DNA of 14,097 bases from a virus (IMGVR_UViG_2531839662_000021:1-14097), one strand, 5' to 3'. Shown: positions 1-14,097, numbered from the stretch's first letter. Notes: generated by a model not told the origin, from the sequence alone. Translations and numbers: made by a program.

Positions 1-348
1 TACATCATGGCGACGGATTCGTGGGGGTACTCCCGCGACGTGCGCTGTGAAGTGCTGGCCGGAAAGGTGATCAAACGCCTGCTGTCGTCGGATGCCACCG
101 GAGGCATGGGGGCTGAACGCATGGCTGCTGATGTGCGGGCAGACAACATTTACTCCGCCAGCCTCGACGGGCTGGGTGTCACCATGTGGGCGGTGACGTG
201 GGAGCAGGAATTTCGGCTGGATGAAGAGATTGATCTCGCCGCGCTCCCGGACTTCCTGCGCCTCGGGGCAACGCTGCGTAGCGGTGAACACACTGAAATT
301 AACGACGTGATCCATGTACGGGGTGACGATGGAACAGAAACTGATTAA
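1..348 (+). CDS. 5'-truncated CDS, C-terminal part of a Mu gp37 (K)-like tail completion/terminator protein
   Basis: ORF is in frame from base 1 (no start inside the window) and stops at 346-348. Position immediately upstream of the small gp38-like ORF and the sheath gene matches Mu late-operon synteny. Function inferred from synteny only. Confidence 0.5.
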   Translation, partial: YIMATDSWGYSRDVRCEVLAGKVIKRLLSSDATGGMGAERMAADVRADNIYSASLDGLGVTMWAVTWEQEFRLDEEIDLAALPDFLRLGATLRSGEHTEINDVIHVRGDDGTETD

Positions 349-514
349 GCCAGCGCGGGAAAACGTCCGTGTCCGTAAACCGGATGGCGCGCATTTATCC
401 CCGGAAGGGGAACGTCTCGACGTCTGCGCTTACTGGCTGCGCCGTGAAGCCGAGGGAGATGTGGAAATAACCGCGCTTCCGAAAAATAGCAACAAAAACA
501 GAGGGAAAAAATAA
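329..514 (+). CDS. small conserved tail-region protein, Mu gp38-like
   Basis: 61-aa ORF (MEQKLIKPAREN...). ATG at 329 is preceded by a GGGGTGA Shine-Dalgarno-like motif; the ORF track's start at 314 has no good RBS. Its stop overlaps the sheath ATG (TAATG at 512-516). Small gene between K-like and L-like genes as in Mu. Confidence 0.5.
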   Translation: MEQKLIKPARENVRVRKPDGAHLSPEGERLDVCAYWLRREAEGDVEITALPKNSNKNRGKK

Positions 515-1990
515 TGTCGCTGGGTTCAATTCCTGATGATATCCGCGTCCCGCTTGTCTGGATCGATATCGACAATTCACAGGTGCTGGATGGTGCATCC
601 GCGCAAAGCCGAAAAATTCTGGTCATGGGCCATGCGGTATCGTCCGGCAGCGCAGACGCCCTGTCACTGACCCGCATCACCAGTGACAGCCAGGCAGACC
701 AGCTTTATGGCAAAGGGTCGATGCTGGCTGAAATGCTCAAAATGCTGCGTCGTGCCAACACGTACACGGAAACCTGGGCTATGCCGGTTGCCGCGCCTGA
801 AGGCGCTGCCGCAAAAGCCACGCTGACCGTGCTGGGTACAGCGACTGAAGCCGGAACGGTGGCACTGCTGATTAACGGTGTGTCCGTTCAGGTGAGCGTG
901 AGCGCCGGGGCTACGAAGGAAAACATTGCAAAAGCCATTGCTGATGCGGTGACGAAAAAGCCTGCCACGCAGGTGGCCGCTGCGGTGAAGGATGATGCCA
1001 CGGATACCGTGGAGCTGACCGTGAACTGGCACGGCGTCACCGGCAACGGTGCCGACGTTCGCCTGAACTACTACACCGGTGAAGCCTTCCCGGCTGGTGT
1101 GAAGGTGACCGCTACTGCGTTTACCGGCGGCACCGGGACACCGGAAATGGCGGATGCCGTTGCGGCCATCGGCCCGGAGTGGTTTACCGATATCATCGCC
1201 CCGTTCACCGACACGAAAAGCCTGAACACCCTGCGTGATGAACTGCTGAACCGCTGGGGGCCGCTCAAAATGATGGAGGCGCAGCTGTGGACGGCGTTTC
1301 GTGGCACGCACGGCGAGACAGGCACGTTTGGTGAAACCCGCAATGACTGGCTGATTAGCTGTATTGGCACCAACCTGTCACCGCACCCGGCGTGGATGTG
1401 GGCCGCGTCATACGGCGCAACGGCAGCGTATCACCTTTGCCATTGACCCGGCGCGTCCGCTTCAGACGCTGGTCCTGACCGGCATTCTGCCGCCTGCGCG
1501 TAATGTTCGCTGGGATATGCCGGAACGTAACCTGCTGCTGCATGACGGCATTGCCACACACATGGTGGACGCCGGGGATAACGTCTGCATCGAGCGTGAA
1601 ATCACCATGTACCGGGTTAATCAGTACGGTGATGCGGATGTGTCGTACCTTGATGTGCAGTCACCCGCCACGCTGGGCCGTATCCGTTACATCATCAAAA
1701 ATCGTTTCACGAACCGTTATCCGCGCCATAAGCTGGCGGACGATGACGTGCTGGACTCACTGGATGCCGGTCAGCCGGTGATGACGCCGAAGCTGTGCAC
1801 CGCAGAGCTGCTGGATATCTGCCAGACCGAACTTATTCCTGCGGGCCTTGTGGAGAACTTCAGCGATTACAAGGACACGCTTCAGGTGACACGCGACAGC
1901 AGCGATAAAAACCGTCTGAACTTTATCTGCCACCCGAATCTGGTGAACCAGCTGCGTGTGCTGGCAGGCCTGATTCAGTTCAAACTTTAA
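514..1990 (+). pseudogene. contractile tail sheath protein (Mu gpL-like), reading frame disrupted by an apparent +1 frameshift near 1420-1440
   Basis: ORF 514..1446 (310 aa, starts MSLGSIPDDIRVPLVWIDID, GAGGGA RBS upstream) continues as protein-like sequence in the next frame (ITFAIDPARPLQTLVLTG... to stop at 1988-1990). Combined span is 1477 nt, one base more than a multiple of three; an intact gene would be about 491 aa, the typical sheath size. The frame-2 ORF upstream of about 1425 is Arg-rich junk. Confidence 0.75.
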
Positions 1991-1999
1991 GGGGGCCGC

Positions 2000-2356
2000 A
2001 TGGCAAAAATTCTTGGCATGGCGACCATTCGCGTGAATGGCCGCGAAATTAAAACCGAGGGGAAATCCACGCTGAATCCGGGCGGCTTCAGTCGCACCCA
2101 GCATATGGGCGGCGGCAAGGTCTGGGGCATCTCCAGCAAGATGGCCTCGCCGTCCATCAAGGTGACCATTGCGGCGGCAGCGGATATGGACGTGATTGAA
2201 ATCAGCAGCTGGGAAGACGTCACGGTGATGTTCTACGGCGACAATGGCCTGAACTACATGATGACGGGTTCCGCCACGGATAACCCGGCGGAGCTGGACG
2301 AGGATTCCGGCACCATCAGTGCCAACTTTATCGGTGAAAAATGCGTGAAGGTGTGA
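2000..2356 (+). CDS. tail tube protein (Mu gpM-like)
   Basis: 118-aa ORF directly after the sheath gene with AAGGGGG RBS 6 nt upstream of ATG; size and position typical of myovirus tube proteins. Confidence 0.75.
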   Translation: MAKILGMATIRVNGREIKTEGKSTLNPGGFSRTQHMGGGKVWGISSKMASPSIKVTIAAAADMDVIEISSWEDVTVMFYGDNGLNYMMTGSATDNPAELDEDSGTISANFIGEKCVKV

Positions 2357-2357
2357 C

Positions 2358-2753
2358 ATGGCTGAAATGACATTTGAACTGAAACACGGGCTTCTGACCG
2401 GCAAAGGCACGGCAGATGAAACCCTGCATAAAACCGTGAAACTGCGCGAACTGACCGCCAGCGACGTGATTGATGCACAACTGGCCGCAGAACGCGTCGT
2501 CATGGGCGGGAACGGAAAGGCGGTGGCCTACTGCTCGGAAGTGCTGATGGGGCTGGAGATGATGCGCCGTCAGGTTGCGGCCATCGGCAGCATTCCCGGC
2601 CCGCTGGACATGAAACAGCTGCGAATGCTCCACCCGGCAGACCTTGAGCTTATCAGCACGAAAGCCGCTGCGCTGGATGACATGCTTGAGGAGGTGGCAA
2701 CGCGGGGGCGACCTGATGCCGCTGGCGGCGGCACTGATGAACCTGCTGGTTAA
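2358..2753 (+). CDS. tail assembly chaperone (Mu gp41-like), short in-frame product
   Basis: 131-aa ORF between tube and tape measure genes, the conserved position for tail assembly chaperones; ATG lies 1 nt after the tube stop. Confidence 0.7.
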   Translation: MAEMTFELKHGLLTGKGTADETLHKTVKLRELTASDVIDAQLAAERVVMGGNGKAVAYCSEVLMGLEMMRRQVAAIGSIPGPLDMKQLRMLHPADLELISTKAAALDDMLEEVATRGRPDAAGGGTDEPAG

Positions 2754-2853
2754 CCTGTCCCAGCGATTCAGCATTCAGTACCTGGAACAGCTGCCCCTGC
2801 GGCAGCTGTTCCGCCTGATAAAGCAACTGGAGAAACAGCATGGCAACAGGTAA
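2358..2853 (+). CDS. tail assembly chaperone frameshift fusion product (G-GT-like), putative -2/+1 shift at G-run 2704-2708
   Basis: A second frame is open from 2644 to the stop at 2854-2856 and overlaps the 3' end of the chaperone ORF; CGGGGGCGA at 2703-2711 is the candidate slip site. The extension ends 14 nt inside the tape measure gene start. Fusion would be about 165 aa. Confidence 0.45.
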
Positions 2854-4696
2854 CCGTCTCAGCACGGAAATCATGATCAACCTTGCCGGGAACCTGACCG
2901 CCAAAGCCCGGCAGTACGGCGCAAATATGTCGCAGTTCGCCCGGAACCATCAGAAGGCCATGCGCCTTGTCAAAGCCACAACGGAGGCCGCAGGACGCGG
3001 CCTTGATACGCTGGGCAACCGCTACACGGCAATGATAGCCGGGCTTGGCAGTAGCCTAACCATCAAACAGGTTGCCGATTTTGATGCGCAGATGCGCCGG
3101 ATGGGTACGGATGCCCAGTTAACCACTGAACAGGTAAAGACGCTTCACGACAAAATCAGGGATGTATCGAACCAGAAAGATATTCGTATTGATGCCTCTG
3201 CGCTTGGTCAGGGGGCCAGCGAACTTCTGGGGAAAACCGGTGATTATCAGTATGTGGTGGACAACCTCCGCAACATGGGGTTGATGATGCAGGCGTTCGG
3301 TGTTGACGGACAGGTTGCAGCCGGGCTGATGGCGCAGTTCTGGGAAAAAAACGTCCGGGGCGCTGATGCGGTCAGTAACATGATGGACAGGCTGTATTCG
3401 CAGTTCGCAGTGGGGTCTGTCAGCGTTGCCGATGTTGCCCGCGCAGCTCCGAAACTGTTTTCCATCATTCAGGATCAGGGACCGGAAGCCATTGCCCAGA
3501 TGGGGGCATTTGCTCAGGTGTTCGCCAAAAACAAAGGCAGCATTGATGAGACGGTAACCAGTATTCAGGCCATGTATGCCTCCCTGTCGGACAAAAAGAA
3601 CATCGAGTTCCTGAAAAAAAACGGCGTTGATGTTTTTGTCAAAGGCACAAAAGACATCAAAAAGCCCTATGAACTGATGATGGAAATCCTTAAACGGGCC
3701 AAATACGACCCGCTGAAACTTCAGGATGTGTTTGATCAGACCGGGATGCAGGGGATTAAGGCGCTGCTTAACCCTGAAAACCGGCAACTGATGGAACAAA
3801 TGATTTACGGCACGATTGATCTGGGTTCCACGCAAAAGGCCGCACAGACCAATGCCGAAGGCTTTAATGCTGCAATGCAATCACTGAATAACGAATGGCA
3901 ACGTTTTGCTGAAGGGCAACTGGCAAAGCCCGTTCAGGACCTGGCGGATGCGCTCAACAGCGTGGACCAGGATACCGTCCAGAACTGGTTGCAGGTGGGT
4001 AAATATATAGCGATTGCGCTGGGTGGCATTATCGCCATCAGAAAGACGTATCAGTTCGGTAAAACCATCCACGACATCATGAATCCCAAAGGGAAAGGCA
4101 AAGGGATTCCCGGTGGCATTACGGATGTTTTCGGCTCCGGTGTGATGCCGGTTTATGTGGTTAATATGGGCAGTGGCGGGATGAATGGTAATACCGGCGG
4201 TCTGCCGGATACACCGGATTCATCGCGCAATCCCCGTAACCCACGCAATCCTCGGGGTCCGGGTAACCGTGGAGGAAAGGCAGGTAAAGGCGCTGGCATC
4301 ATTACCGGTGCTCTGGAGTTTTACGATTTTCTGACCACGCAATACGCCCTGCCGGGTGAGGTTGACAGCCTTACAAAATCCGTTGCCGGTGATGCCAGCG
4401 CCAGCCCGTGGGAGCGCGAGTTCGCGCAACAGAGTCAGGACAATCAGAAAGCGCTCGAGTCCGTCTGGCGTAAGGTAACGGACTGGTTCAACTCGCTGGG
4501 TGACAAGAACATTGCCGACCCGCGACCGTGGGCAGGTATGCAACCCACACAGAATTATCCTTTCCTTCCGCAGCAATTGCAGGGGGAGATCCGTGTGGTG
4601 GTGGAAGGTGACGCCCGCGTGAAAAGCGTCAGAGTGGATCAACCCGGCGTCAGACTCAGTGCGCAGGCTGGCGTCACCAGCGTGGAGCAAGGGTAA
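2840..4696 (+). CDS. tail tape measure protein (Mu gpN-like)
   Basis: 618-aa ORF following the chaperone pair, GGAG RBS upstream; hydrophobic segment (WLQVGKYIAIALGGIIAI) and Gly-rich low-complexity C-terminal region typical of tape measure proteins. Confidence 0.8.
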   Translation: MATGNRLSTEIMINLAGNLTAKARQYGANMSQFARNHQKAMRLVKATTEAAGRGLDTLGNRYTAMIAGLGSSLTIKQVADFDAQMRRMGTDAQLTTEQVKTLHDKIRDVSNQKDIRIDASALGQGASELLGKTGDYQYVVDNLRNMGLMMQAFGVDGQVAAGLMAQFWEKNVRGADAVSNMMDRLYSQFAVGSVSVADVARAAPKLFSIIQDQGPEAIAQMGAFAQVFAKNKGSIDETVTSIQAMYASLSDKKNIEFLKKNGVDVFVKGTKDIKKPYELMMEILKRAKYDPLKLQDVFDQTGMQGIKALLNPENRQLMEQMIYGTIDLGSTQKAAQTNAEGFNAAMQSLNNEWQRFAEGQLAKPVQDLADALNSVDQDTVQNWLQVGKYIAIALGGIIAIRKTYQFGKTIHDIMNPKGKGKGIPGGITDVFGSGVMPVYVVNMGSGGMNGNTGGLPDTPDSSRNPRNPRNPRGPGNRGGKAGKGAGIITGALEFYDFLTTQYALPGEVDSLTKSVAGDASASPWEREFAQQSQDNQKALESVWRKVTDWFNSLGDKNIADPRPWAGMQPTQNYPFLPQQLQGEIRVVVEGDARVKSVRVDQPGVRLSAQAGVTSVEQG

Positions 4697-5970
4697 TGAC
4701 AACAGGCAAAGGCAAATGGGACGGACTGCGCGACGCCTCGTTTCGCGGTGTCCCCTTCTTTCTGGTGGATACGGAAGGCACCGGTGGCCGCAGGGCTATT
4801 CCCCGCGCGTATCCCCGGCGTGAAACCGCCTGGACGGATGATAACGGGGCCGTTCCCGGTCAACAGCAGATTAACGCAAAGCTGCCAGGTAAAAACTTCC
4901 AGGATGATTTAAACGCCCTTTTAGACGCGCTCAATACCCCCGGCCCCGGCGAGCTTATCCACCCGTGGTTCGGGATACAGACCGTACAGGTTGGCAAGGT
5001 CACCCATCGCCTCAGCACGGAGGAAGACGGCATTGCGTATGTCACTTTTGAAGTGTTTGAGGCAGGCGAGCGCCTGTTCCCGTCTGCGGCGGATAACACG
5101 CAGCAGGAAGTACTGACGGGTATTGATGCGGTAAAAGCGGCCATTGACGATGGCGACTGGTTCGGCGCACTCGACGGGCTGGGTGAGATGGCCGACAGCT
5201 TTCTGGCTGATATGGAAAACCTTGTGGCTAACCTGCCCACGTTACCGGCAGCACTGAATCAGTGGATGGACAGGCTGAACCATTTTAAGGAGATGGCCGG
5301 AACCATCATTGCCACACCGGGGCGTCTGGTCAGTGAGCTGTCCTCGTTCATCGACGGCGTGGTTGATCTGGTGACGGAACCACCCGAAGCACTGGCGGTT
5401 TACACGACATTACGCAACCAGTGGGCCGGAGAACGCGCCCGACAGGTTGCCACCGGCGCACTGCCGGAAGATATCACCGTGAAGCCAGGCAGCGTGGCAG
5501 ACGGCGAAATTGGCTTTGCTATCGGGCTGTCACCGGATTATCAGCCGGTATCTGTCAGTCTGCAGAAGAACATTGACGACTTCCGCCAGGTGGTTGTGCT
5601 GGAAACCCTGCTGGGACAGGCAAATGCCGTGGCCTCGATGACGTTCGATACCAGTGATGCGGCCTTATCTGCCGGTGACACGCTGGCGGCTGAACTGCAT
5701 GAGCAGGCGGTGGCAGCGGTGGAAAATAACCAGCGGGCATTGTGGCGAACGCTGCGCGATTTACGGCAGGCCGTGATTACGGATGCCCGCGAGCGTGCCG
5801 CCCGTCTGCCGGAAACCCGGCAGGTGACGCTGACCACAACCACATCTGCCGCATTGCTGGCATGGCGCGAGCATGGGGATACAAGCCGACGGGATGAAAT
5901 CGTGCAGCGTAACCGCCTGCGCCATCCGTCATTCATCCTGCCAACGCAACCAGTGGAGATTACCGACTGA
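4696..5970 (+). CDS. Mu gp43 (P)-like 'DNA circulation' baseplate/tail protein
   Basis: 424-aa ORF; N-terminus (KWDGLRDASFRGVPFFLVDTEG) resembles the DNA-circulation N-terminal family found after the tape measure gene in Mu-like phages; start overlaps the upstream stop (TAATG). Confidence 0.7.
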   Translation: MTTGKGKWDGLRDASFRGVPFFLVDTEGTGGRRAIPRAYPRRETAWTDDNGAVPGQQQINAKLPGKNFQDDLNALLDALNTPGPGELIHPWFGIQTVQVGKVTHRLSTEEDGIAYVTFEVFEAGERLFPSAADNTQQEVLTGIDAVKAAIDDGDWFGALDGLGEMADSFLADMENLVANLPTLPAALNQWMDRLNHFKEMAGTIIATPGRLVSELSSFIDGVVDLVTEPPEALAVYTTLRNQWAGERARQVATGALPEDITVKPGSVADGEIGFAIGLSPDYQPVSVSLQKNIDDFRQVVVLETLLGQANAVASMTFDTSDAALSAGDTLAAELHEQAVAAVENNQRALWRTLRDLRQAVITDARERAARLPETRQVTLTTTTSAALLAWREHGDTSRRDEIVQRNRLRHPSFILPTQPVEITD

Positions 5971-7040
5971 TGGAATCCGTGATTCTTACCGTTGACGGCA
6001 AATTGTGGGAAGGCTGGACGGAAATGTCCGTCAGCCGTTCCCTGAAGGCGATTGCCGGTGAGTTTGATCTCAGTGTGACAACCCGCTGGTCAGCGGCGGC
6101 ACCGCGCGTGATACGTGAGGGGCAACCCTGCACGGTCAGGCTGGGTGCGGATACCGTGCTGACAGGGTATATCGATGATTTTATCCCCAGCTATGACGCA
6201 GATAACGTGGAGATTCGCGTCATGGGGCGCGACAAAACCGGCGACCTGGTGGACTGCTCTGTGGTGCATTCATCCGGGAAATGGAAAGGCGTGCGGCTGG
6301 AACAGGTAGCGGCTGATGTCTGCCGCCCGTTCGGGATAGCCGTCATCACGGAAACCCCGACCGGGGAGGCGTTTGCGTCCGTTGTTCTGGAACAGGGTGA
6401 AACGGGCTTTGAACTGCTCGACCGGCTGGCAAAACAGCGCGGCGTTCTGCTGACGTCTGACGGCGCAGGTAACCTGATTATCACCCGCGCCTCTTCCGTT
6501 CGCGCGGGTGTGTCACTGGTGCTGGGGAAAAATATCCTCGCCGCCCGTGGGCGCTTCAGCTGGCGGGAGCGTAACAGCCAGTACATCATCAAGGGCACCA
6601 CCAGTGCCGGTGGCAAACTGTGGGACAGCCAGCCTGCCTCGATGGTGGGTGGTCGCCAGTACATCACCGAAGACCCGGAAATTAACCGTTACCGCCCGCG
6701 CATTCTGGTCAATGAAGACAGCCTGACCGTGGGCGGGGCCAGCATTCGCGGGGAATGGTACAAAGCCCGGATGCTGGGGGAATCCCGCACGACGGAAATC
6801 ACGGTGGCAGGCTGGCGCGAACAGGGCGACAGCGGCCCGCTGTGGCAGACCAATCGCCTTGTCGATATCGACGACAGCATTCAGAACCTGAAAACCACCT
6901 GGCTGATATCCGGGGTGACCTGGACGGATGGCGCACAGGGGCGGATGACGGTTCTGGCGCTGGTTCCGCCTGAATCACTGGATATGCCGGAAATGAAAGC
7001 GAAGACGAAGAAAACAAAGGCGGTGGCCACATGGGATTAA
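5970..7040 (+). CDS. baseplate hub protein (Mu gp44/Q-like, P2 gpD-like)
   Basis: 356-aa ORF in the conserved position; start overlaps the upstream stop (TGATG). Confidence 0.7.
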   Translation: MESVILTVDGKLWEGWTEMSVSRSLKAIAGEFDLSVTTRWSAAAPRVIREGQPCTVRLGADTVLTGYIDDFIPSYDADNVEIRVMGRDKTGDLVDCSVVHSSGKWKGVRLEQVAADVCRPFGIAVITETPTGEAFASVVLEQGETGFELLDRLAKQRGVLLTSDGAGNLIITRASSVRAGVSLVLGKNILAARGRFSWRERNSQYIIKGTTSAGGKLWDSQPASMVGGRQYITEDPEINRYRPRILVNEDSLTVGGASIRGEWYKARMLGESRTTEITVAGWREQGDSGPLWQTNRLVDIDDSIQNLKTTWLISGVTWTDGAQGRMTVLALVPPESLDMPEMKAKTKKTKAVATWD

Positions 7041-7567
7041 ACGCAATTGCCCGCCGTCTGCGGCTGCTGGTTGACCGTGCCGTTGTGCGCATGGTGTCTG
7101 ACAGTCTGGAGCGGCAGAACCTGCAAATCCAGACGCTGGCTGATGCCACCGACGACGACGTGGAACGCTTCCAGAACTACGGGTTTACTTCCGTTCCGCC
7201 GGAAGGTTCTGAAGCCATCGTGCTGGCCGTGGGCGGACGGCGTGACGGGCTGGTTGCCATCGCGGTGGAGGACAAGCGATGTCGCCCGAAAGGCCTGTCC
7301 CCCGGTGATGTCCGGCTGTATCACCAGGACGGTAAATCGCATATCACGTTAAAGAAAGGCGGAATTATTGAAATCACAGGAGAACAATTAAACGTTTCAG
7401 GGAAAACGGTAAATCTCACCGCCGACGAATTGCTGAATATTATCGGTAAACAAATGAAATTCGTCGGTCCCTGTGAATTTACTGCAGATGCCACAATCAA
7501 CGGTAAATCTTTCATCAAACACATTCATAAGGACGGCGACAATGAGAAGACATCACCGCCCATATGA
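7031..7567 (+). CDS. baseplate central spike / assembly protein V (Mu gp45-like)
   Basis: 178-aa ORF overlapping the hub gene by 10 nt; size and position match gpV-like spike proteins. Confidence 0.7.
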   Translation: MGLNAIARRLRLLVDRAVVRMVSDSLERQNLQIQTLADATDDDVERFQNYGFTSVPPEGSEAIVLAVGGRRDGLVAIAVEDKRCRPKGLSPGDVRLYHQDGKSHITLKKGGIIEITGEQLNVSGKTVNLTADELLNIIGKQMKFVGPCEFTADATINGKSFIKHIHKDGDNEKTSPPI

Positions 7568-8016
7568 CGACCGGAATCCGCTGGAATAATACTCTCTCAC
7601 GGGGTGACATCACCGTCACCCATAACGGCCTCTCACTGGATGAGGGGCTGGTCACTCAGGTTCTTATCTGCCTTTTCACTGATGCCCGTGCTGATGACGA
7701 TGATGTCATTCCAGATGGTTCCGGCGACCCGCGCGGCTGGCCGGGCGACACGTACAGCGATTTTTCGTGGGGTTCCCGCCTGTGGCTGCTTGAGCGCGAA
7801 AAACTGACGGAAGATGTCCGCCTGCGCGTGGAGGATTACGCGCGACTGTCCATGCAACCGCTGCTGCGGGCCGGTTACGCCCGTAACGCCACCGTCACGG
7901 CCAGAATCATCGTCCCTGACCGTATTGCCTTTCAGGTGGTGTTAACCCGCCCGGACAAAACCACGCTCACAATCGAAATCACCCGCCGATGGGAGGCCAC
8001 CATTAATGCCGTATGA
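7564..8016 (+). CDS. baseplate wedge protein, Mu gp46 (W)-like / T4 gp25-like
   Basis: 150-aa ORF with ATGA start/stop overlap with the upstream gene; Asp-rich motif (DARADDDDVIPDGSGDPRGW) characteristic of the GP46 family. Confidence 0.7.
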   Translation: MTTGIRWNNTLSRGDITVTHNGLSLDEGLVTQVLICLFTDARADDDDVIPDGSGDPRGWPGDTYSDFSWGSRLWLLEREKLTEDVRLRVEDYARLSMQPLLRAGYARNATVTARIIVPDRIAFQVVLTRPDKTTLTIEITRRWEATINAV

Positions 8017-9082
8017 AATCCCCTCGCTGGGCAAACTGATTGCCGACGGCGAAAAAGATATTGCGTATGAACTCGGTCTGCAAAAGCTGCCGCCTGTCAG
8101 TGTTGAGCAGGCGCTGAACGTGTCGTTCAGCAGTCAGGTCCGGGATTTATACGACCATCAGAGCTGGATTAAGGACCAGATAATCCCGTCCACCGCATCT
8201 GATGATGAAACCATTATCAAAACAGCAACGTATGAAGGGGTTATCCGCAAGCAGGCAACCTTTGCCAGCGGGCCGGTGACCTTCACCAGTCAGTCCCCCA
8301 TTCCGGCAGAAACCCGGATGCAGTCCGACACGAATCAGGTGTATCAGGTACTCACATCCGGCGAGGTACAGGACGGCGAGGTCACCGTCATCGTGCAGGC
8401 TGAAGAAGCCGGTGTGGCGGGCAATCTTGCTGCCGGTGCCGTGCTCACTCTGTTGTCCCCGCTACCCGGAACGGGCAGCACCGGCGCGGTGACTGAAAGT
8501 GGCATCACCGGTGGCGCAGACATCGAATCCATCGCAGAGCTGCTGGACCGTCTGCTGTATGTGCGCCGCAATCCCCCGGTGGGCGGTGCACTGCATGATT
8601 ACGTCATCTGGGCGCGTGAAGTGCCGGGTGTCAGCCGCGCGTGGGCATGGGATGCGTGGCACGGCCCCGGCACGGTCGGGCTGGCATGGCTTTATGATGA
8701 CCGTGAAGACATTATCCCCACACGGGACGACCTGAAGACAATGGAGCAGTATCTGTTCTGCCACAAACACCCTGCCACCGGCGTGATGGTGGGCAAACCG
8801 GGCGGCATCGAGGTCTGGCCGGTGCAGGTCAGGCTGAAGAAGCTCGACCTGTCCATCCGTCTGACACCGGACAGCCAGGCGAACAGGAACGCCGTCCGGG
8901 CAAACCTGACCGCATTGCAGAAAACGCTGGCCCCCGGTCAGATGCTGCCGGTGTCCTCGCTGCGCACGGCCATCGGTATGACGTCCGGTATCACGGATTA
9001 CTTCCTCAACATCGGGGAGGACACCACCAGTGATGTGGATGAGCTTATCACCATCGGGGAGGTGACATGGCTCACAGCGTGA
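8006..9082 (+). CDS. baseplate J-like protein (Mu gp47-like)
   Basis: 358-aa ORF overlapping the upstream gene by 11 nt; size and synteny match baseplate J family proteins. Confidence 0.7.
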   Translation: MPYEIPSLGKLIADGEKDIAYELGLQKLPPVSVEQALNVSFSSQVRDLYDHQSWIKDQIIPSTASDDETIIKTATYEGVIRKQATFASGPVTFTSQSPIPAETRMQSDTNQVYQVLTSGEVQDGEVTVIVQAEEAGVAGNLAAGAVLTLLSPLPGTGSTGAVTESGITGGADIESIAELLDRLLYVRRNPPVGGALHDYVIWAREVPGVSRAWAWDAWHGPGTVGLAWLYDDREDIIPTRDDLKTMEQYLFCHKHPATGVMVGKPGGIEVWPVQVRLKKLDLSIRLTPDSQANRNAVRANLTALQKTLAPGQMLPVSSLRTAIGMTSGITDYFLNIGEDTTSDVDELITIGEVTWLTA

Positions 9083-9651
9083 CGGAATGGCTGACCGCAC
9101 TGCAACAGGTCATGCCACGGGGTAAGGCATGGCCGCGTGATAACGACGCGGATTTAAACCGTTTTTTAAGGGCGCTTGCAGAGCGTTTAACCCGCGTTGA
9201 ATACGACGCCTCGCGTCTGCATGTGGAGATGCGACCGGAAACCACGCTCCAGTTGCTGCCGGAGTGGGAGCAATATCTGGCGCTGCCGGAATGCGGAATT
9301 GCCGCCACCACAACGGAAGCCCGCCGCCGGGCCGTGGTGGAGAAATACCGCCGCAAAGGCGGGCTGGCCACCTGGCAGATTGAAGCCGCTGCGGCGGCGC
9401 TGGGATTCACTATTAAGGTGACGGCCGTTCTGCCGCACCACTGCCTGCGTGACTGCATGTACCCGCTACATCCGGCGCGGTATCGCTGGCTGCTGAAAGT
9501 GGAAGTCCCGGACAAAGATGCCGGGCGGTTTACCTGTATTGATGACGTCATGACGCCATTAATCAGCGAACGGACCCGCGAGCTGGAATGCCTGCTGAAG
9601 CATTACCGGCTGGCGGGCACGGAATATGAATATTATTACACCGGAGAATAA
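9067..9651 (+). CDS. tail/baseplate protein Mu gp48-like (P2 gpI-like)
   Basis: 194-aa ORF overlapping the upstream gene by 16 nt, immediately preceding the tail fibre gene as in Mu. Confidence 0.65.
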   Translation: MAHSVTEWLTALQQVMPRGKAWPRDNDADLNRFLRALAERLTRVEYDASRLHVEMRPETTLQLLPEWEQYLALPECGIAATTTEARRRAVVEKYRRKGGLATWQIEAAAAALGFTIKVTAVLPHHCLRDCMYPLHPARYRWLLKVEVPDKDAGRFTCIDDVMTPLISERTRELECLLKHYRLAGTEYEYYYTGE

Positions 9652-9654
9652 TTT

Positions 9655-10542
9655 ATGTTTCATGTGGATAATCCGACGGGTGTGCCAGTGATGCCACCTG
9701 TCGCGGCTGAATTAAGCAAAACAACGCTTTATTTCACCGAAGGCGGGAACGGTATTCCGCCCACTTATCCGGGGCCGGACTGGTTTAATATTATTCAGTC
9801 TGAATTACTGAAAATTCTCGAAGAAGCCGGAATAACACCGGATAAAGCAGATACCGGTCAGATAATGGCAGCGCTGAAAAAACTGTTTATTACGAACAGT
9901 GGTTCAGCTGGTGCCATTGCCGGATTAACCGGTCAGAATAATACGTTCCCGTACTTTACGGGCGAAGACACAATGGCATTAACGCCGCTCAGTGCTTTTG
10001 TGCGCGGTATTCTCGGGAAAAACACAGCCGGTGAAATTATCGACGCGCTTTTATTACGTGACACGGTAAATAAAGCTAATAGTGCTGTACCGAATACCCG
10101 CAGGGTCAACGGCATGGCTCTGTCTTCGGATATCACCATCAGCAACATCAGCGGCAACGCCGGAACGGCAACCCGACTTCAGACGGCCCGCAGGATTAAC
10201 AATGTGCTGTTTGATGGCAGCCGCGATATCACGATTTCTGCGGGAATGTCACAAACTGAAGGTGACAACCGTTACCAGCAAAAAAACACGGCGTCAAAAG
10301 CCGGTAATGGCTGGTTTAAGGACACGTCCACCGGGGTGATTATTCAGTGGGGGTATCTCGGCAATGCCAGTGCCGGGCTGACGTTTCCGATATCATTTCC
10401 GTCAGCATGTACCAGCATCACTATTACCAACGCATACACCCGTGCTGATTACTCTATTTCCCTGAAATCGTTATCAGCAGCAGGTGCGACATTCAACAGC
10501 GAGAATAACGGCGTTATGTACTGGACAGCGATAGGGTATTAA
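9655..10542 (+). CDS. tail fibre protein (Mu S-like), module 1
   Basis: 295-aa ORF with GGAGAA RBS; directly follows the baseplate genes and is followed by an overlapping tail fibre assembly gene; more AT-rich than the upstream structural genes. Confidence 0.75.
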   Translation: MFHVDNPTGVPVMPPVAAELSKTTLYFTEGGNGIPPTYPGPDWFNIIQSELLKILEEAGITPDKADTGQIMAALKKLFITNSGSAGAIAGLTGQNNTFPYFTGEDTMALTPLSAFVRGILGKNTAGEIIDALLLRDTVNKANSAVPNTRRVNGMALSSDITISNISGNAGTATRLQTARRINNVLFDGSRDITISAGMSQTEGDNRYQQKNTASKAGNGWFKDTSTGVIIQWGYLGNASAGLTFPISFPSACTSITITNAYTRADYSISLKSLSAAGATFNSENNGVMYWTAIGY

Positions 10543-10982
10543 TGATGACTATTTATTTCAGCCCATCAACAAACGGTTTTTATCATTCTGGCCTTCAGGG
10601 TGATTATGAAAATGCGGGAACGTGGCCGAATGATTTACAGGAAATCACGGATGAAGAATATCAGAGACTGTTACAGGGCCAGACTGACGGTTTTATTATT
10701 GTATCTGGCGAAAACGGATATCCGGTATTAAAAGAACCCGTAATTAACTGGCAGCAGAAAGCGGAAACGCAACGCCAGCACCTGCTGGCTGAAGCAAGGG
10801 AAATCACCTCCGACTGGAAAACCGAGCTGGAGCTGGGCACCATCAGCGACGATGATAAAGCCCGTCTTACGCAGTGGATGGCATATATCAAAGCGGTAAA
10901 GGCACTGGATTTAAGCACCGTTACTGACGAAGACTCCTTTTATTCCATCAACTGGCCGGAGCGTCCCGATGCCGCAGCTTAA
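10542..10982 (+). CDS. tail fibre assembly chaperone (Mu U-like / Tfa), module 1
   Basis: 146-aa ORF with TAATG overlap to the fibre gene; size and position typical of Tfa/U chaperones. Confidence 0.7.
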   Translation: MMTIYFSPSTNGFYHSGLQGDYENAGTWPNDLQEITDEEYQRLLQGQTDGFIIVSGENGYPVLKEPVINWQQKAETQRQHLLAEAREITSDWKTELELGTISDDDKARLTQWMAYIKAVKALDLSTVTDEDSFYSINWPERPDAAA

Positions 10983-12576
10983 AGGTGTGATTAAAACGCC
11001 CACGGGAGAACCGCTGGGCGGCGCAACCATTACATTGACCTCCCTGCACAACCGCGCAGGGATTCTGAAAAGTGTTTTCAGCCATGTCACCACACAGAAC
11101 GGGGAATATGACTTCCCCGTTCTGCCGGGTGTGTACAGCGTTCGCCTGACACAAAGCACACAGCGCCTTTCAGAAATCGGTGTCATCCGCGTTTATGAAG
11201 ATTCAGCGGACGGTTCGTTGAATGATTTTCTGGGTGCAACCGATATTGACCTGCGCCCGGAAGCCCTGAAGAAATTCGAAGAGCTGGCGCAACAGGCGCA
11301 GCAAAGCGCAGAAGCCGCAGCGGAAAGCGAGCGACAGGCCGGGCAACATGTCGCTGATGCGCAGAAGATAAAGAAAGACTGTCAGACGCTGGCGGATAAC
11401 GTACAGCAGAACGCAGAAGCCGTAGCGGCCAGCAAACAGCACGTTGAACAGCTGGCCTCAGAAGTTGAGCTGAACGCCGGGCAGGTGCAGCAGGGCGTGC
11501 AGAATGTTACTGATGCGGTAAAAAAGGCGCAGCAGGCAGCAAAGGATTCTGCTGACAGTGCCACAGATTCGAAAAACAGTGCTGACAATGCGGCACTGAG
11601 CGAACAGAACGCACAAAAACACGCGCAGAAAGCTGAACAACACGAGCAGCAGACTAAACAATATGCGCAGGATGCAGCGACCGCCGCAGAATCAGCAGAG
11701 AACGCCAAAGGCGAAATTGACGAAATTCTGGAAGGTGGCTATCTCAAGATAAAAAACAACTTTCAGGAAATTGTTGATGCTGGCCCGTCAGCACTGGCTC
11801 AGGCCCAATGGAATTTACAGATTTCCGGGGTGAAAAATAAACAGGTAATTGCCACCCCTTATACATGGCCATCCAGAACTGAGTATGAACAAAGGGTGCA
11901 TCTGCCACTCGCCGGGGCTTACGGATTTGGCTACACATTTGAAGACCAAAGCCAGGGGCGAATAAATTTTAATGAGGGCTATACGGCGTCGTGGTGGTCA
12001 CAGTGGGCGAAACCTGGTCGTTATTACGTCAGCGCCAGTGATAAAGAATACCTCGCACCTGAAGGAGAAAGGTGGGGGATTGTTGATTTGCTGTGGCTTA
12101 ATGGCAGCGGATATAACGATGCTTCGAAGGTTCTGAAGATACTGGCTTTTTACGACTCAGACGGGCACTTACACATAGGCAAGCGCGTTGGTCAGAGCGA
12201 CTGGTCAATAAGCTGGCGCAAGCTGGCATCGCTCTCTGATGTCAGGGCCATGCTGTATTCATATATTTATAATAATTACAACAGAGAATGGCGAGACCCG
12301 GAACTGGGAGGTTTAATTCTGGCGTCATACCAGGGAACCGCAGACGGCGACACAAATATAAAAGTATCCCGTGGTCAGACTTATCCCGGCTCGCGACTCG
12401 CTCCTGTGGCGATAGAATGCCAGTTCACCCCATCCGGCACGTATGCTGCAACACCGCGATTCTACATTACCGGCTGCAAGAGCAAATCACTCCCCGGAAC
12501 TTATATTTCATTGTCTGGCGCGCCAACAACATACAGCGACCAGGCATTTGTTGCGCTATTCATGAGGATTGTATGA
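10969..12576 (+). CDS. second tail fibre protein with distinct N-terminal domain, long Ala/Gln-rich coiled-coil stalk and C-terminal receptor-binding region
   Basis: 535-aa ORF; N-terminus (MPQLKGVIKTPTGEPLGGATITLTS...) resembles prophage tail-fibre N-terminal domains; residues about 100-250 are strongly Ala/Gln/Glu/Lys-rich; followed by its own Tfa gene. Confidence 0.75.
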   Translation: MPQLKGVIKTPTGEPLGGATITLTSLHNRAGILKSVFSHVTTQNGEYDFPVLPGVYSVRLTQSTQRLSEIGVIRVYEDSADGSLNDFLGATDIDLRPEALKKFEELAQQAQQSAEAAAESERQAGQHVADAQKIKKDCQTLADNVQQNAEAVAASKQHVEQLASEVELNAGQVQQGVQNVTDAVKKAQQAAKDSADSATDSKNSADNAALSEQNAQKHAQKAEQHEQQTKQYAQDAATAAESAENAKGEIDEILEGGYLKIKNNFQEIVDAGPSALAQAQWNLQISGVKNKQVIATPYTWPSRTEYEQRVHLPLAGAYGFGYTFEDQSQGRINFNEGYTASWWSQWAKPGRYYVSASDKEYLAPEGERWGIVDLLWLNGSGYNDASKVLKILAFYDSDGHLHIGKRVGQSDWSISWRKLASLSDVRAMLYSYIYNNYNREWRDPELGGLILASYQGTADGDTNIKVSRGQTYPGSRLAPVAIECQFTPSGTYAATPRFYITGCKSKSLPGTYISLSGAPTTYSDQAFVALFMRIV

Positions 12577-13142
12577 TGCAGATTAAAGAAATCACCAGCC
12601 CCCGTTATACCGAATCCGGTGCGATTGACTGCGACGTTCTGTTTGAGGAAATGGAAGCCCCTGTTCCCTACACTGCCACGCCGGACGATACAGCGAAAAC
12701 CGGTCAGCAAATCTGGCAGGAACTGCAAAGCGGAAAATGGGGTGAAATAACCCCGTTTGCCGTCACGCCGGAACTTATCGCAGCGGCGAAGGATGCCAAA
12801 AAACGGGAGATTGAGGCATGGCGCACAGAACAGGAGGCGCAGCCATTCACGTTCGAATGGAACGGTCGTACCTGGAATGCTGGTCCCGATTCGATGGCTC
12901 GCATTGCGCCCGTGGCAATGGCCGCAAAAGTGGCAGGTGCACGGGCAACGCTGGGGTGGGGGGATGCAGCAAACAGCCTTGTCACCATGACAATGGCGCA
13001 GCTTCAGGAGCTGGCAGCAACAATGGCGCAGGCGCAAACCGAGCGCAATACTGTGATTTATCGTCGTCAGCGTGAGATGAAAGAGCAGCTTTCCCTGTTG
13101 ACCACACTGAACGAAATAAGAGCATTCACACCCGGCGATTAA
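12573..13142 (+). CDS. tail fibre assembly chaperone (Tfa), module 2
   Basis: 189-aa ORF starting at ATGATG with GAGG RBS and ATGA overlap with the fibre stop. The longer ORF from 12288 in the track is a junk-like upstream extension. Confidence 0.7.
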   Translation: MMQIKEITSPRYTESGAIDCDVLFEEMEAPVPYTATPDDTAKTGQQIWQELQSGKWGEITPFAVTPELIAAAKDAKKREIEAWRTEQEAQPFTFEWNGRTWNAGPDSMARIAPVAMAAKVAGARATLGWGDAANSLVTMTMAQLQELAATMAQAQTERNTVIYRRQREMKEQLSLLTTLNEIRAFTPGD

Positions 13143-13265
13143 ATAATCATTTTGTATAGTTTATGACGATCGATAACATCATATCGATCGTCGGTTTGCA
13201 TCATATGTGATTAAATACCCCCAGCCCTCCGGGCGGTCATGTCTGGTTATTACACAGGGGGAATC
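13143..13265 (+). promoter_or_regulatory. mom-operon control region (Pmom-like): perfect 11-bp inverted repeat carrying two GATC Dam sites, G+C-rich element, com RBS
   Basis: GACGATCGATA (13165-13175) and TATCGATCGTC (13182-13192) are exact reverse complements separated by 6 bp; GATC at 13168-13171 and 13186-13189. Downstream ATACCCCCAGCCCTCCGGGCGG and AGGGGG RBS precede the com ATG. In Mu, Pmom is controlled by Dam methylation of upstream GATC sites and by the C activator. Confidence 0.55.
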
Positions 13266-13451
13266 ATGGACTCTGTTCGCTGTAAAAACTGCAATAAATT
13301 ACTGTTTAAAGGAGGTTTTAAGCATATAGAAATTAAATGCCCTCGCTGTAAACGTTACATTGTCATATCGAATGCCAAAGAGCATCCCACGGAGCTGTAT
13401 TGTGGGAAAAGAGAAGAAATCACGCATTCTGACAAAACCCTGCGTTATTGA
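13266..13451 (+). CDS. com: Com, zinc-finger translational activator of mom
   Basis: 61-aa product [33 protein letters not shown]...HSDKTLRY with CxxC...CxxC zinc-finger spacing, closely resembling Mu Com as I remember it; AGGGGG RBS 6 nt upstream of ATG; 3' end overlaps mom. Confidence 0.85.
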
Positions 13452-14097
13452 GTATGAAGGTCGTATTGTCGGCTATGGTTCAAAGGAGCTACGTGTTGAA
13501 ACCATATCCTGCTGGCTGGCCCGCACAATCATTCAGACAAAACACTATTCCCGCCGTTTTGTGAATAACTCCTACCTGCATCTTGGCGTATTCAGCGGAC
13601 GTGATCTGGTTGGCGTTCTTCAGTGGGGATATGCCCTTAACCCCAACTCAGGGCGTCGGGTCGTGCTTGAAACGGATAACCGGGGCTATATGGAACTGAA
13701 CCGCATGTGGCTACACGACGACATGCCCCGCAACTCTGAATCACGGGCTATCAGCTACGCGCTGAAAGTTATCAGGTTACTGTATCCGTCAGTTGAGTGG
13801 GTTCAGTCTTTTGCAGACGAACGCTGCGGACGTGCTGGCGTGGTATATCAGGCGTCGAATTTTGATTTTATTGGTAGCCATGAAAGCACGTTCTACGAGC
13901 TGGACGGCGAGTGGTATCACGAGATAGCGATGAACGCGATTAAGCGCGGAGGGCAACGAGGCGAGTATTTGCGGGCTAATAAGGAGCGGGCCGTGGTACA
14001 CAAATTTAATCAGTATCGCTACATCAGGTTCCTGAACAAGCGCGCAAAAAAGCGCCTAAACACCAAGCTATTCAGGATTCAGCCATACCCGAAGTGA
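13402..14097 (+). CDS. mom: Mom DNA modification protein (adenine modification, anti-restriction)
   Basis: ORF in a different frame overlapping the com 3' end and running to the window end (stop 14095-14097). GTG at 13402 is preceded by GGAG (13391-13394) and gives 231 aa, the length I recall for Mu Mom. An in-frame ATG at 13372 (241 aa) is an alternative start. Confidence 0.8.

Follow-up and report, generated by a model that had tools for sequence, protein, structure and literature searches.

The stretch of DNA analysed here (IMGVR_UViG_2531839662_000021:1-14097, 14,097 nucleotides (nt), hereafter the window) is a plus-strand late-gene block of a Mu-like Escherichia coli prophage, in which two tail-fibre genes, each followed by the gene of a helper protein, occupy the interval between the baseplate gene gp48 and the com-mom genes. 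It is probable that these two pairs are non-homologous receptor-binding modules which are produced together and mounted on one virion at different sites, and that their host range is diversified by recombination and not by inversion. Mu is the textbook case of host-range switching via DNA inversion, its S/U and S'/U' gene pairs being opposed inside the invertible G segment and switched by Gin. The window locus belongs with the Mu-family transposable phages and stands outside the invertible-segment systems.

Two tail-fibre modules with different anchors

The positions given for the two fibre/helper pairs in the original prediction, which was made from the sequence alone, proved right; the four genes are all on the plus strand, each having a strong family match. 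The open reading frames (ORFs), Pfam and PHROG assignments agree with its description of two fibre/helper modules that run head-to-tail into com-mom. The features of this region, with protein lengths in amino acids (aa), are as follows:

9067-9651, plus strand: gp48/YmfQ-type baseplate wedge protein (Pfam Phage_Mu_Gp48, 111 bits; 31% identical to Mu gp48)
9655-10542, plus strand: fibre 1, a Mu gpS-type baseplate fibre of 295 aa (phrog_1833, E-value 3e-87; Gp53-like_C; Mu S N-terminus)
10232-10761, plus strand: mosaic block comprising the fibre 1 tip and the N-terminal half of chaperone 1, unaligned with the STEC719 relative
10542-10982, plus strand: chaperone 1, a Caudo_TAP tail-fibre assembly protein (TAP) of 146 aa (Pfam PF02413, 89 bits, cut-off 22)
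10969-12576, plus strand: fibre 2, 535 aa (phage_tail_N, PF08400, 96.4 bits, cut-off 26.6; phrog_2636, E-value 1e-198)
10969-11250, plus strand: N-terminal collar/anchor domain of fibre 2, aa 1-94 (PF08400; beta-sandwich and short helix)
11260-11814, plus strand: predicted shaft of fibre 2, a long alpha-helix, aa 98-282 (AlphaFold2 (AF2) helices 98-197 and 217-282)
11836-12576, plus strand: predicted C-terminal globular tip of fibre 2, aa 290-535 (AF2 alpha/beta domain; predicted local distance difference test score (pLDDT) about 70-90)
12576-13142, plus strand: accessory 2, a DUF4376 protein of 188 aa (PF14301, 61 bits, cut-off 25, residues 70-176; phrog_1141, E-value 7e-83)

The four genes between gp48 and com-mom are intact and tightly packed, with a 3-nt gap between gp48 and fibre 1 and overlaps of 1 nt between fibre 1 and chaperone 1, 14 nt between chaperone 1 and fibre 2, and 1 nt between fibre 2 and accessory 2. 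A promoter and terminator scan of the window returned matches at chance level and nothing between the two modules, which, together with the tight junctions, points to a single translationally coupled operon including the four fibre-region genes and the baseplate genes. No Rfam family was matched in the window.

Fibre 1 is of the Mu type. Its residues 1-81 match the Mu tail fibre protein S (PDB 5yvq/9ki1) with an E-value of 3e-20 and the overall identity to Mu S is 34% over 204 aa; it is, however, shorter than its Mu counterpart (295 versus 504 aa) and ends in a Gp53-like tip (Gp53-like_C, residues 225-295) which is also similar to R-pyocin fibres. The N-terminal anchor and the shaft are conserved, with the tip being unlike that of the relatives. 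In Mu, cryo-electron microscopy (cryo-EM) revealed six trimeric fibres per baseplate, the gpS N-terminus being docked on the fibre-docking loop borne by gp48 (PMC11915804). Chaperone 1 belongs to the Caudo_TAP family (Mu U / lambda Tfa), is encoded directly downstream of fibre 1 and shares 37% identity with Mu U' and 29% with Mu U in its C-terminal half, which also gives a weak match to PDB 5yvq_B. Fibre 1 is the Mu gpS orthologue, and its N-terminus would be expected to dock at each of the six wedges of the baseplate, on the loop of gp48, with the Caudo_TAP protein folding its tip.

Sequence and fold alike place fibre 2 in the PF08400 fibre family; it has no counterpart in Mu and no homology to S' or U'. 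Its residues 3-90 match the StfN domain of Ur-lambda (9e7m; phmmer E-value 1e-9) and residues 3-190 match gp40 of the Vibrio myophage XM1 (7kjk, 7kjk_A3; phmmer E-value 2e-7). The N-domains of the same two proteins were the sole significant matches when the PDB was searched by fold with fibre 2, with a Foldseek E-value of 1.5e-5 for 7kjk, the best match, and 6.7e-5 for 9e7m, the latter with a root-mean-square deviation of 2.4 Å over 87 columns and a TM-score of 0.76 normalised to the target. The AF2 model consists of a beta-sandwich (residues 1-75), a short helix, a helix spanning residues 98-282 and a globular tip (290-535); the shaft is presumed to form a trimeric coiled coil and the tip to be the receptor-binding domain. 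The tip had no significant fold match in the PDB, so the receptor class cannot be deduced from it.

The protein thus combines the features of an Stf-type fibre, namely a PF08400 score above the gathering threshold and the StfN fold, with a contractile tail context. Like Ur-lambda Stf, fibre 2 opens with the collar domain (alike by sequence and fold) and continues through a linker and a presumed coiled-coil shaft to a distal part taken to bind the receptor, and the gene of a presumed chaperone lies directly downstream. The differences are that the lambda tail is non-contractile, that the lambda chaperone is a Caudo_TAP protein and that the N-domains are only about 37-40% identical; moreover, StfN clamps the gpV/gpM junction, which would be covered by the sheath in a myovirus. 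In Ur-lambda the collar around that junction is built from twelve copies of StfN, in four trimers (PMC12617516), and Stf is non-essential in lambda, where it speeds adsorption. Fibre 2 likewise has the architecture of XM1 gp40, i.e. an immunoglobulin (Ig)-like N-domain, a long coiled-coil helix (about 100 residues in gp40) and a C-terminal receptor-type domain; the trimers of gp40 are carried by a contractile-tailed virion with a simple baseplate. Six gp40 trimers bind the adaptor and terminator proteins at the XM1 neck (PMC10457771). Unlike fibre 2, gp40 has a tailspike-like C-terminus, its sequence similarity to fibre 2 is modest, and attachment at the neck has been demonstrated for XM1 alone.

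The start codon of accessory 2 overlaps the stop codon of fibre 2; the mechanically called ORF begins at 12288, and the start consistent with RefSeq is the ATG at 12576. The original prediction had named this product a second chaperone, which stands as far as a helper gene following fibre 2 is concerned, but the protein lies outside the Caudo_TAP/Mu U family and carries a C-terminal DUF4376 domain instead. It is 78% identical to L57 of phiP27, as well as to the tail4 region of Rac-SA53, and 69% identical to its counterpart in vB_Apl-pPE4 (hereafter pPE4). Experiments on Alteromonas phage V22 (gp27) and on Campylobacter CJIE1 prophages, where the protein is the partner of the H-fibre, have shown that the fibres depend on a DUF4376 chaperone, and by analogy accessory 2 is presumed to be the chaperone of fibre 2.

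No similarity between module 1 and module 2 was detectable with BLASTP, therefore the modules are not paralogues. Nor was an opposite-strand second tip sharing a constant fibre N-terminus found: both modules are on the plus strand, and fibre 2 possesses an N-terminal anchor of its own, which is unlike those of fibre 1 and Mu S'. The original prediction had also stated that there is no invertase, had suggested that the locus is not phase-variable, and had proposed a search of the flanking genome for gin-type genes and gix-like sites; searches for both came back empty in the DNA named below. TBLASTN with Mu Gin gave no match in the window, in the two copies of the prophage in E. coli UMNF18 with up to 20 kb of flanking DNA, or in the other relatives checked, with the positive control on Mu working as expected, and the annotations of the UMNF18 copies and the relatives list no invertase. 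No gix site was found in the window at up to 3 mismatches, nor its core AAACCNNGGTTT at up to 1 mismatch. The only inverted repeats in the window are short (14-22 nt), imperfect pairs inside coding sequence, occurring at chance level. With Gin, a gix site and an inverted copy all missing, the claim that host range is not phase-variable here is supported.

Conservation of the four-gene order and exchange of tips

The window backbone (positions 1-9700) is covered to at least 80% in 45 of 5426 complete E. coli genomes, and a block consisting of the C-terminal half of chaperone 1 and the N-domain of fibre 2 in 43 of them at the same threshold. The relatives retain the order gp48, fibre, TAP, PF08400 fibre, with the C-termini of fibre 2 being variable: the protein has 535 aa, 777 aa, or is replaced by a 301-aa stalk, a 100-aa protein and a 456-aa SGNH/GDSL esterase. 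The last arrangement is that of the STEC719 prophage (L010, 16986-19712), where the fibre 2 slot contains the PF08400 and coiled-coil stalk, the two further proteins and a 50-aa ORF rather than a fibre and a DUF4376 gene; possibly the fibre is assembled here from several parts, with an enzyme that modifies O-antigen as its tip. In strain RM11911 (L003, 3683-6288), about 2.2 kb without an annotated gene separate a fibre 2 fragment, annotated as a pseudogene, from the DUF4376 gene, and this gap may represent a disrupted or mis-called long fibre. The loci of NCCP 13717 and the RIVM strains (L005, 1568-5346) have gp48 lengthened to 324 aa and an extra 352-aa protein (phrog_8291) before fibre 1, and only an N-terminal piece of their fibre 2 is left, which the annotation lists as a 339-nt partial gene.

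The same order of fibre, TAP, PF08400 fibre and DUF4376 gene also occurs at a locus with a P2-type W-J-I baseplate, and in phiP27 (L54-L57) and pPE4 (gp67-70), both of which have a gp48-like wedge gene immediately before it (phiP27 L53, pPE4 gp66). Judging by the annotations of these two phages, neither is a transposable Mu-like phage, phiP27 being an Stx2e phage with an attR site and pPE4 having an integrase, and com-mom is found at neither locus. They further differ from the window in the subtype of the PF08400 N-domain (the first 150 aa are about 54% identical) and in fibre 1 and its tip. The four-gene arrangement is therefore not new in kind, as it is already in public sequence (phiP27, AJ298298), where it is annotated merely as tail fibre genes. 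In the open-access literature we found no description of a fibre, TAP, PF08400 fibre, DUF4376 cassette, nor of a lambda-type fibre on a contractile Mu/P2-type tail; the 'P27' of PMC12502783 is listed there as the podovirus 'Traversvirus P27' and is apparently unrelated to phiP27. As for pPE4, labelled as an 'Actinobacillus' phage (L006), its baseplate J protein is 91-99% identical to those of 20 IMG/VR prophage loci (within L022-L057), and its fibre 2/DUF4376 region shares 83.5% DNA identity with the window, which is unexpectedly close for a phage of Pasteurellaceae.

IMG/VR was scanned with an alignment of the N-domain and the genes upstream of each hit were classified; the 80 best loci are the top matches to the query, so that their counts are not population frequencies. 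Forty of them follow the baseplate genes of contractile tails, among which at least four types occur, and 38 follow genes of the lambda J/lom type, with two left unassigned. In the 40 contractile-tail loci, a TAP gene is directly upstream in 32 cases and a DUF4376 gene is downstream in at least 25, with a Gin homologue in none. The N-domain subtype splits strictly by tail type in this set of 80: the window-type and phiP27-type domains occur only with contractile tails, and the lambda-type domain (at least 82% identity) only in siphovirus contexts. Taken together, these comparisons show that the four-gene arrangement is a conserved unit rather than a one-off and support co-evolution of the anchor with the tail backbone.

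Within the Mu-like lineage of E. coli, fibre 2 hardly varies over residues 1-100, which show only about 37-54% identity to those of phiP27, pPE4 and lambda. Despite the differing N-domains, residues 105-150 or so are near-identical to the corresponding parts of phiP27 L56 and pPE4 gp69, and this, along with the nearly invariant anchor, indicates a recombination joint just after the anchor. Homologues of the whole fibre 2 shaft and tip (73-85% identity) bear other N-domain subtypes, one of them (P0009) being located behind a P2-type baseplate. A similar joint is seen at fibre 1: in the BLASTN comparison of the window with STEC719, the regions 4342-10232 and 10761-11314 match at 94-96% and 10233-10760 is unmatched, with the protein alignment in agreement. 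The mosaic joints show that both fibres keep their anchors and swap their tips, the shaft and tip of fibre 2 having been exchanged with fibres of the phiP27/pPE4 type.

Prophage context and condition of the copies

Upstream of the fibre region, the window carries the neck, sheath, tube, tape measure, gpN-like, gpP-like, gp45, gp46, gp47 (Baseplate_J) and gp48 (Phage_Mu_Gp48/YmfQ) genes. The features downstream of it are as follows:

13164-13193, no strand assigned: perfect palindrome with a 12-bp stem and two GATC sites (at 13168 and 13186), in the spacer between accessory 2 and com
13266-13451, plus strand: com, translational activator of mom (Zn_ribbon_Com; phrog_13819, E-value 7e-43; 89% DNA identity to Mu/SfMu com-mom)
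13372-14097, plus strand: mom, DNA modification, the final gene of the prophage (Pfam Mom, 254 bits)

The 128-nt spacer between accessory 2 and com has a folding energy of -39.7 kcal/mol (z -2.8), and the palindrome in it (spacer 13143-13265) may play a regulatory role; it recalls the region upstream of Mu mom that Dam and OxyR control. DNA similarity to Mu starts only at about 13276.

The right end has the features of Mu-family transposable phages, with Baseplate_J, Phage_Mu_Gp48, Zn_ribbon_Com and Mom domains identified by Pfam and with gp45-48 baseplate genes, a gpS-homologous fibre N-terminus, a U/U'-like C-terminal half of the chaperone and com-mom at the prophage end. Both UMNF18 copies, which share this fibre region, have host DNA (a yphC fragment or dhaM) directly after mom. 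The transposition genes, which lie outside the window, are represented by a transposase-domain protein of the Mu type and an AAA ATPase at the left end of a UMNF18 copy. Related prophages adjoin yphC, dhaM, ddp, gspE and an SDR gene, i.e. many unrelated chromosomal sites, as expected of a transposable phage. The difference from Mu is that the window has no G segment, gin or gix, the slot between U and com being filled by a lambda-Stf-type fibre and a DUF4376 gene on the same strand.

Over the part of the window that starts at position 9000, identity to E. coli UMNF18, a porcine enterotoxigenic strain, is 99.9-100%, and upstream of about 3800 the identity to the copies in this strain is only 98.3% (BLASTN). 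UMNF18 has at least two copies at different sites (L001, NZ_AGTD01000001.1 3092838-3137936; L011, 1453000-1496000). The two RefSeq copies lack window bases 1-1328 and have in common an internal deletion that starts where the major head gene ends and stops within the sheath gene, whereas the window keeps this neck and sheath DNA; the common deletion suggests either that an already defective element was transposed or that the assembly was collapsed. In the window, the sheath gene (514-1990) is split into two ORFs, 514-1446 and 1364-1990, by a 1-nt insertion at 1436, where a run of T is longer by one than in STEC719 (CCTTTGCC against CCTTGCC); either the frameshift is genuine and inactivates the gene, or the homopolymer was misread in sequencing. 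ORF 1364-1990 was also considered as a deletion-derived sheath fragment, and this was rejected since the gene is full-length apart from the inserted nucleotide. The prophage copy in the window looks defective, and mass spectrometry of particles induced from it would probably fail because of the frameshifted sheath gene. The STEC719 prophage appears complete from the head genes to mom. The Z0117EC0133 relative (L009, NZ_CP098183.1 2302680-2313810) is a large-deletion remnant that lacks the early, head and tail-tube genes and in which only about 115 nt separate a truncated transposase gene from the baseplate gene P downstream of it; the whole dual-fibre cassette and com-mom are still there.

Proposed attachment of the second fibre and alternative explanations

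In the proposed scheme both fibres would be made from the one late operon, with the collar domain of fibre 2 clamping a hexameric tail ring, its shaft forming a coiled coil and its tip then being folded with the help of the DUF4376 protein. As the two anchors are different, the fibres would not compete for one site, making them additive and not alternative. The host range would vary through recombinational replacement of the tips together with the specificity parts of the chaperones, and not through Gin-type inversion. That both fibres enter the virion, that the DUF4376 protein acts as a chaperone and where fibre 2 attaches are what we infer from the above comparisons. Since the sheath covers the tube, the neck is the only solved myovirus precedent for the fibre 2 site (XM1 gp40); alternatively, the fibre may sit on a ring near the baseplate, as in lambda. 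A more specific version, less likely than not, would make the PF08400 N-domain a 'plug' peculiar to each backbone, by which the lambda-Stf-type fibre is mounted on a ring of contractile virions of the Mu/P2 type, most likely at the neck as in XM1. Such temperate myoviruses would have a whisker-like second receptor-binding fibre far from the baseplate that evolves independently of the baseplate fibre and replaces Gin-type phase variation as their host-range strategy. If so, the strict split of N-domain subtypes by tail type would mark the docking partner.

Several observations weigh against the co-mounting of two fibres. No virion proteomics or imaging was found for any phage carrying the cassette, and PDB sequence searches with the STEC719 neck proteins matched only Mu gp36 (gene product J), which does not discriminate between sites for fibre 2. 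The AF2 model of fibre 2 is monomeric and of moderate quality (mean pLDDT 64), and in this single chain the shaft helices score low. In the window a frameshift interrupts the sheath gene, and the UMNF18 RefSeq copies, which contain several frameshifts, have lost the 5' part of that gene along with the neck genes, so these particular copies may make no virions. Finally, a large clade (NCCP 13717 and the RIVM strains) retains only a truncated N-terminal fragment of fibre 2 and has lost the DUF4376 gene, which means either that fibre 2 is at most accessory or that those prophages are decaying. By analogy with lambda Stf, fibre 2 may be accessory at best.

The loss in that clade would also be understandable if module 2 were passenger DNA acquired by recombination from a lambdoid prophage, expressed or decaying but not assembled, so that the particle had just one working type of fibre. 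The classical role of PF08400 fibres is that of side fibres in siphoviruses, DUF4376 partners are present in the Rac-SA53, SerU-LTIIb and P-Eib records too, many relatives have a truncated fibre 2 with no DUF4376 gene, and the GC content falls in the module 2 region. We nevertheless regard this explanation as unlikely, since the N-domain is a distinct subtype (about 37-40% identical to that of lambda) found only behind contractile baseplates and nearly invariant in the lineage while the downstream parts are swapped, the cassette occurs on at least four contractile backbones, the ORFs are intact with the 14-nt overlap with the upstream chaperone gene, and XM1 shows that a myovirus can bear such a fibre. 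The constant position of the TAP gene directly before fibre 2 (32 of the 40 contractile loci) might instead hint at a branched fibre, in which fibre 2 is mounted on fibre 1 or its retained chaperone at the six baseplate sites. The conservation of the chaperone C-terminal half and the fibre 2 N-domain as one block (10761-11314) and the sharing of the phiP27-type N-domain by backbones with different baseplate proteins fit such a structure, as does the persistence of Mu Tfa on the fibre, for which a passage in PMC7882524 cites earlier work. That block, however, can equally be seen as two constant regions between two variable ones, both solved homologues of the N-domain bind hexameric tail or neck rings and not fibres, and lambda-type Stf requires no upstream TAP, all of which makes a branched fibre unlikely.

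The original prediction had left a choice between a fixed dual-fibre virion and a locked, recombined host-range cassette. The latter, understood as what is left of an invertible segment like the Mu G segment, with gin lost and a single orientation fixed, draws on the fact that module 2 (about 2.2 kb) occupies, between U and com, the position of U', S'v and gin in Mu. It is effectively refuted: fibre 2 and accessory 2 have no homology to S'/U' or Gin, there are no gix-like sequences, flanking inverted repeats or inverted or duplicated copies, fibre 2 has a complete anchor of its own in place of the constant part of S, and the arrangement is a lineage-wide feature which also recurs in the same order on non-Mu backbones. 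The dual-fibre virion is the best supported of the readings, given the different anchors, the coupled operon and the gene order conserved on contractile backbones, with co-mounting itself being deduced from these.

The practical value of the window copy is limited because this prophage looks defective, but the conserved joint just after the anchor domain could serve host-range engineering. The cassette is widespread on contractile-tailed enterobacterial prophages and makes the docking of a lambda-type side fibre on a sheathed tail a testable question. A common E. coli Mu-like lineage would thus follow a strategy different from that of Mu, with two fibres carried at once and each of them diversified by tip swaps.

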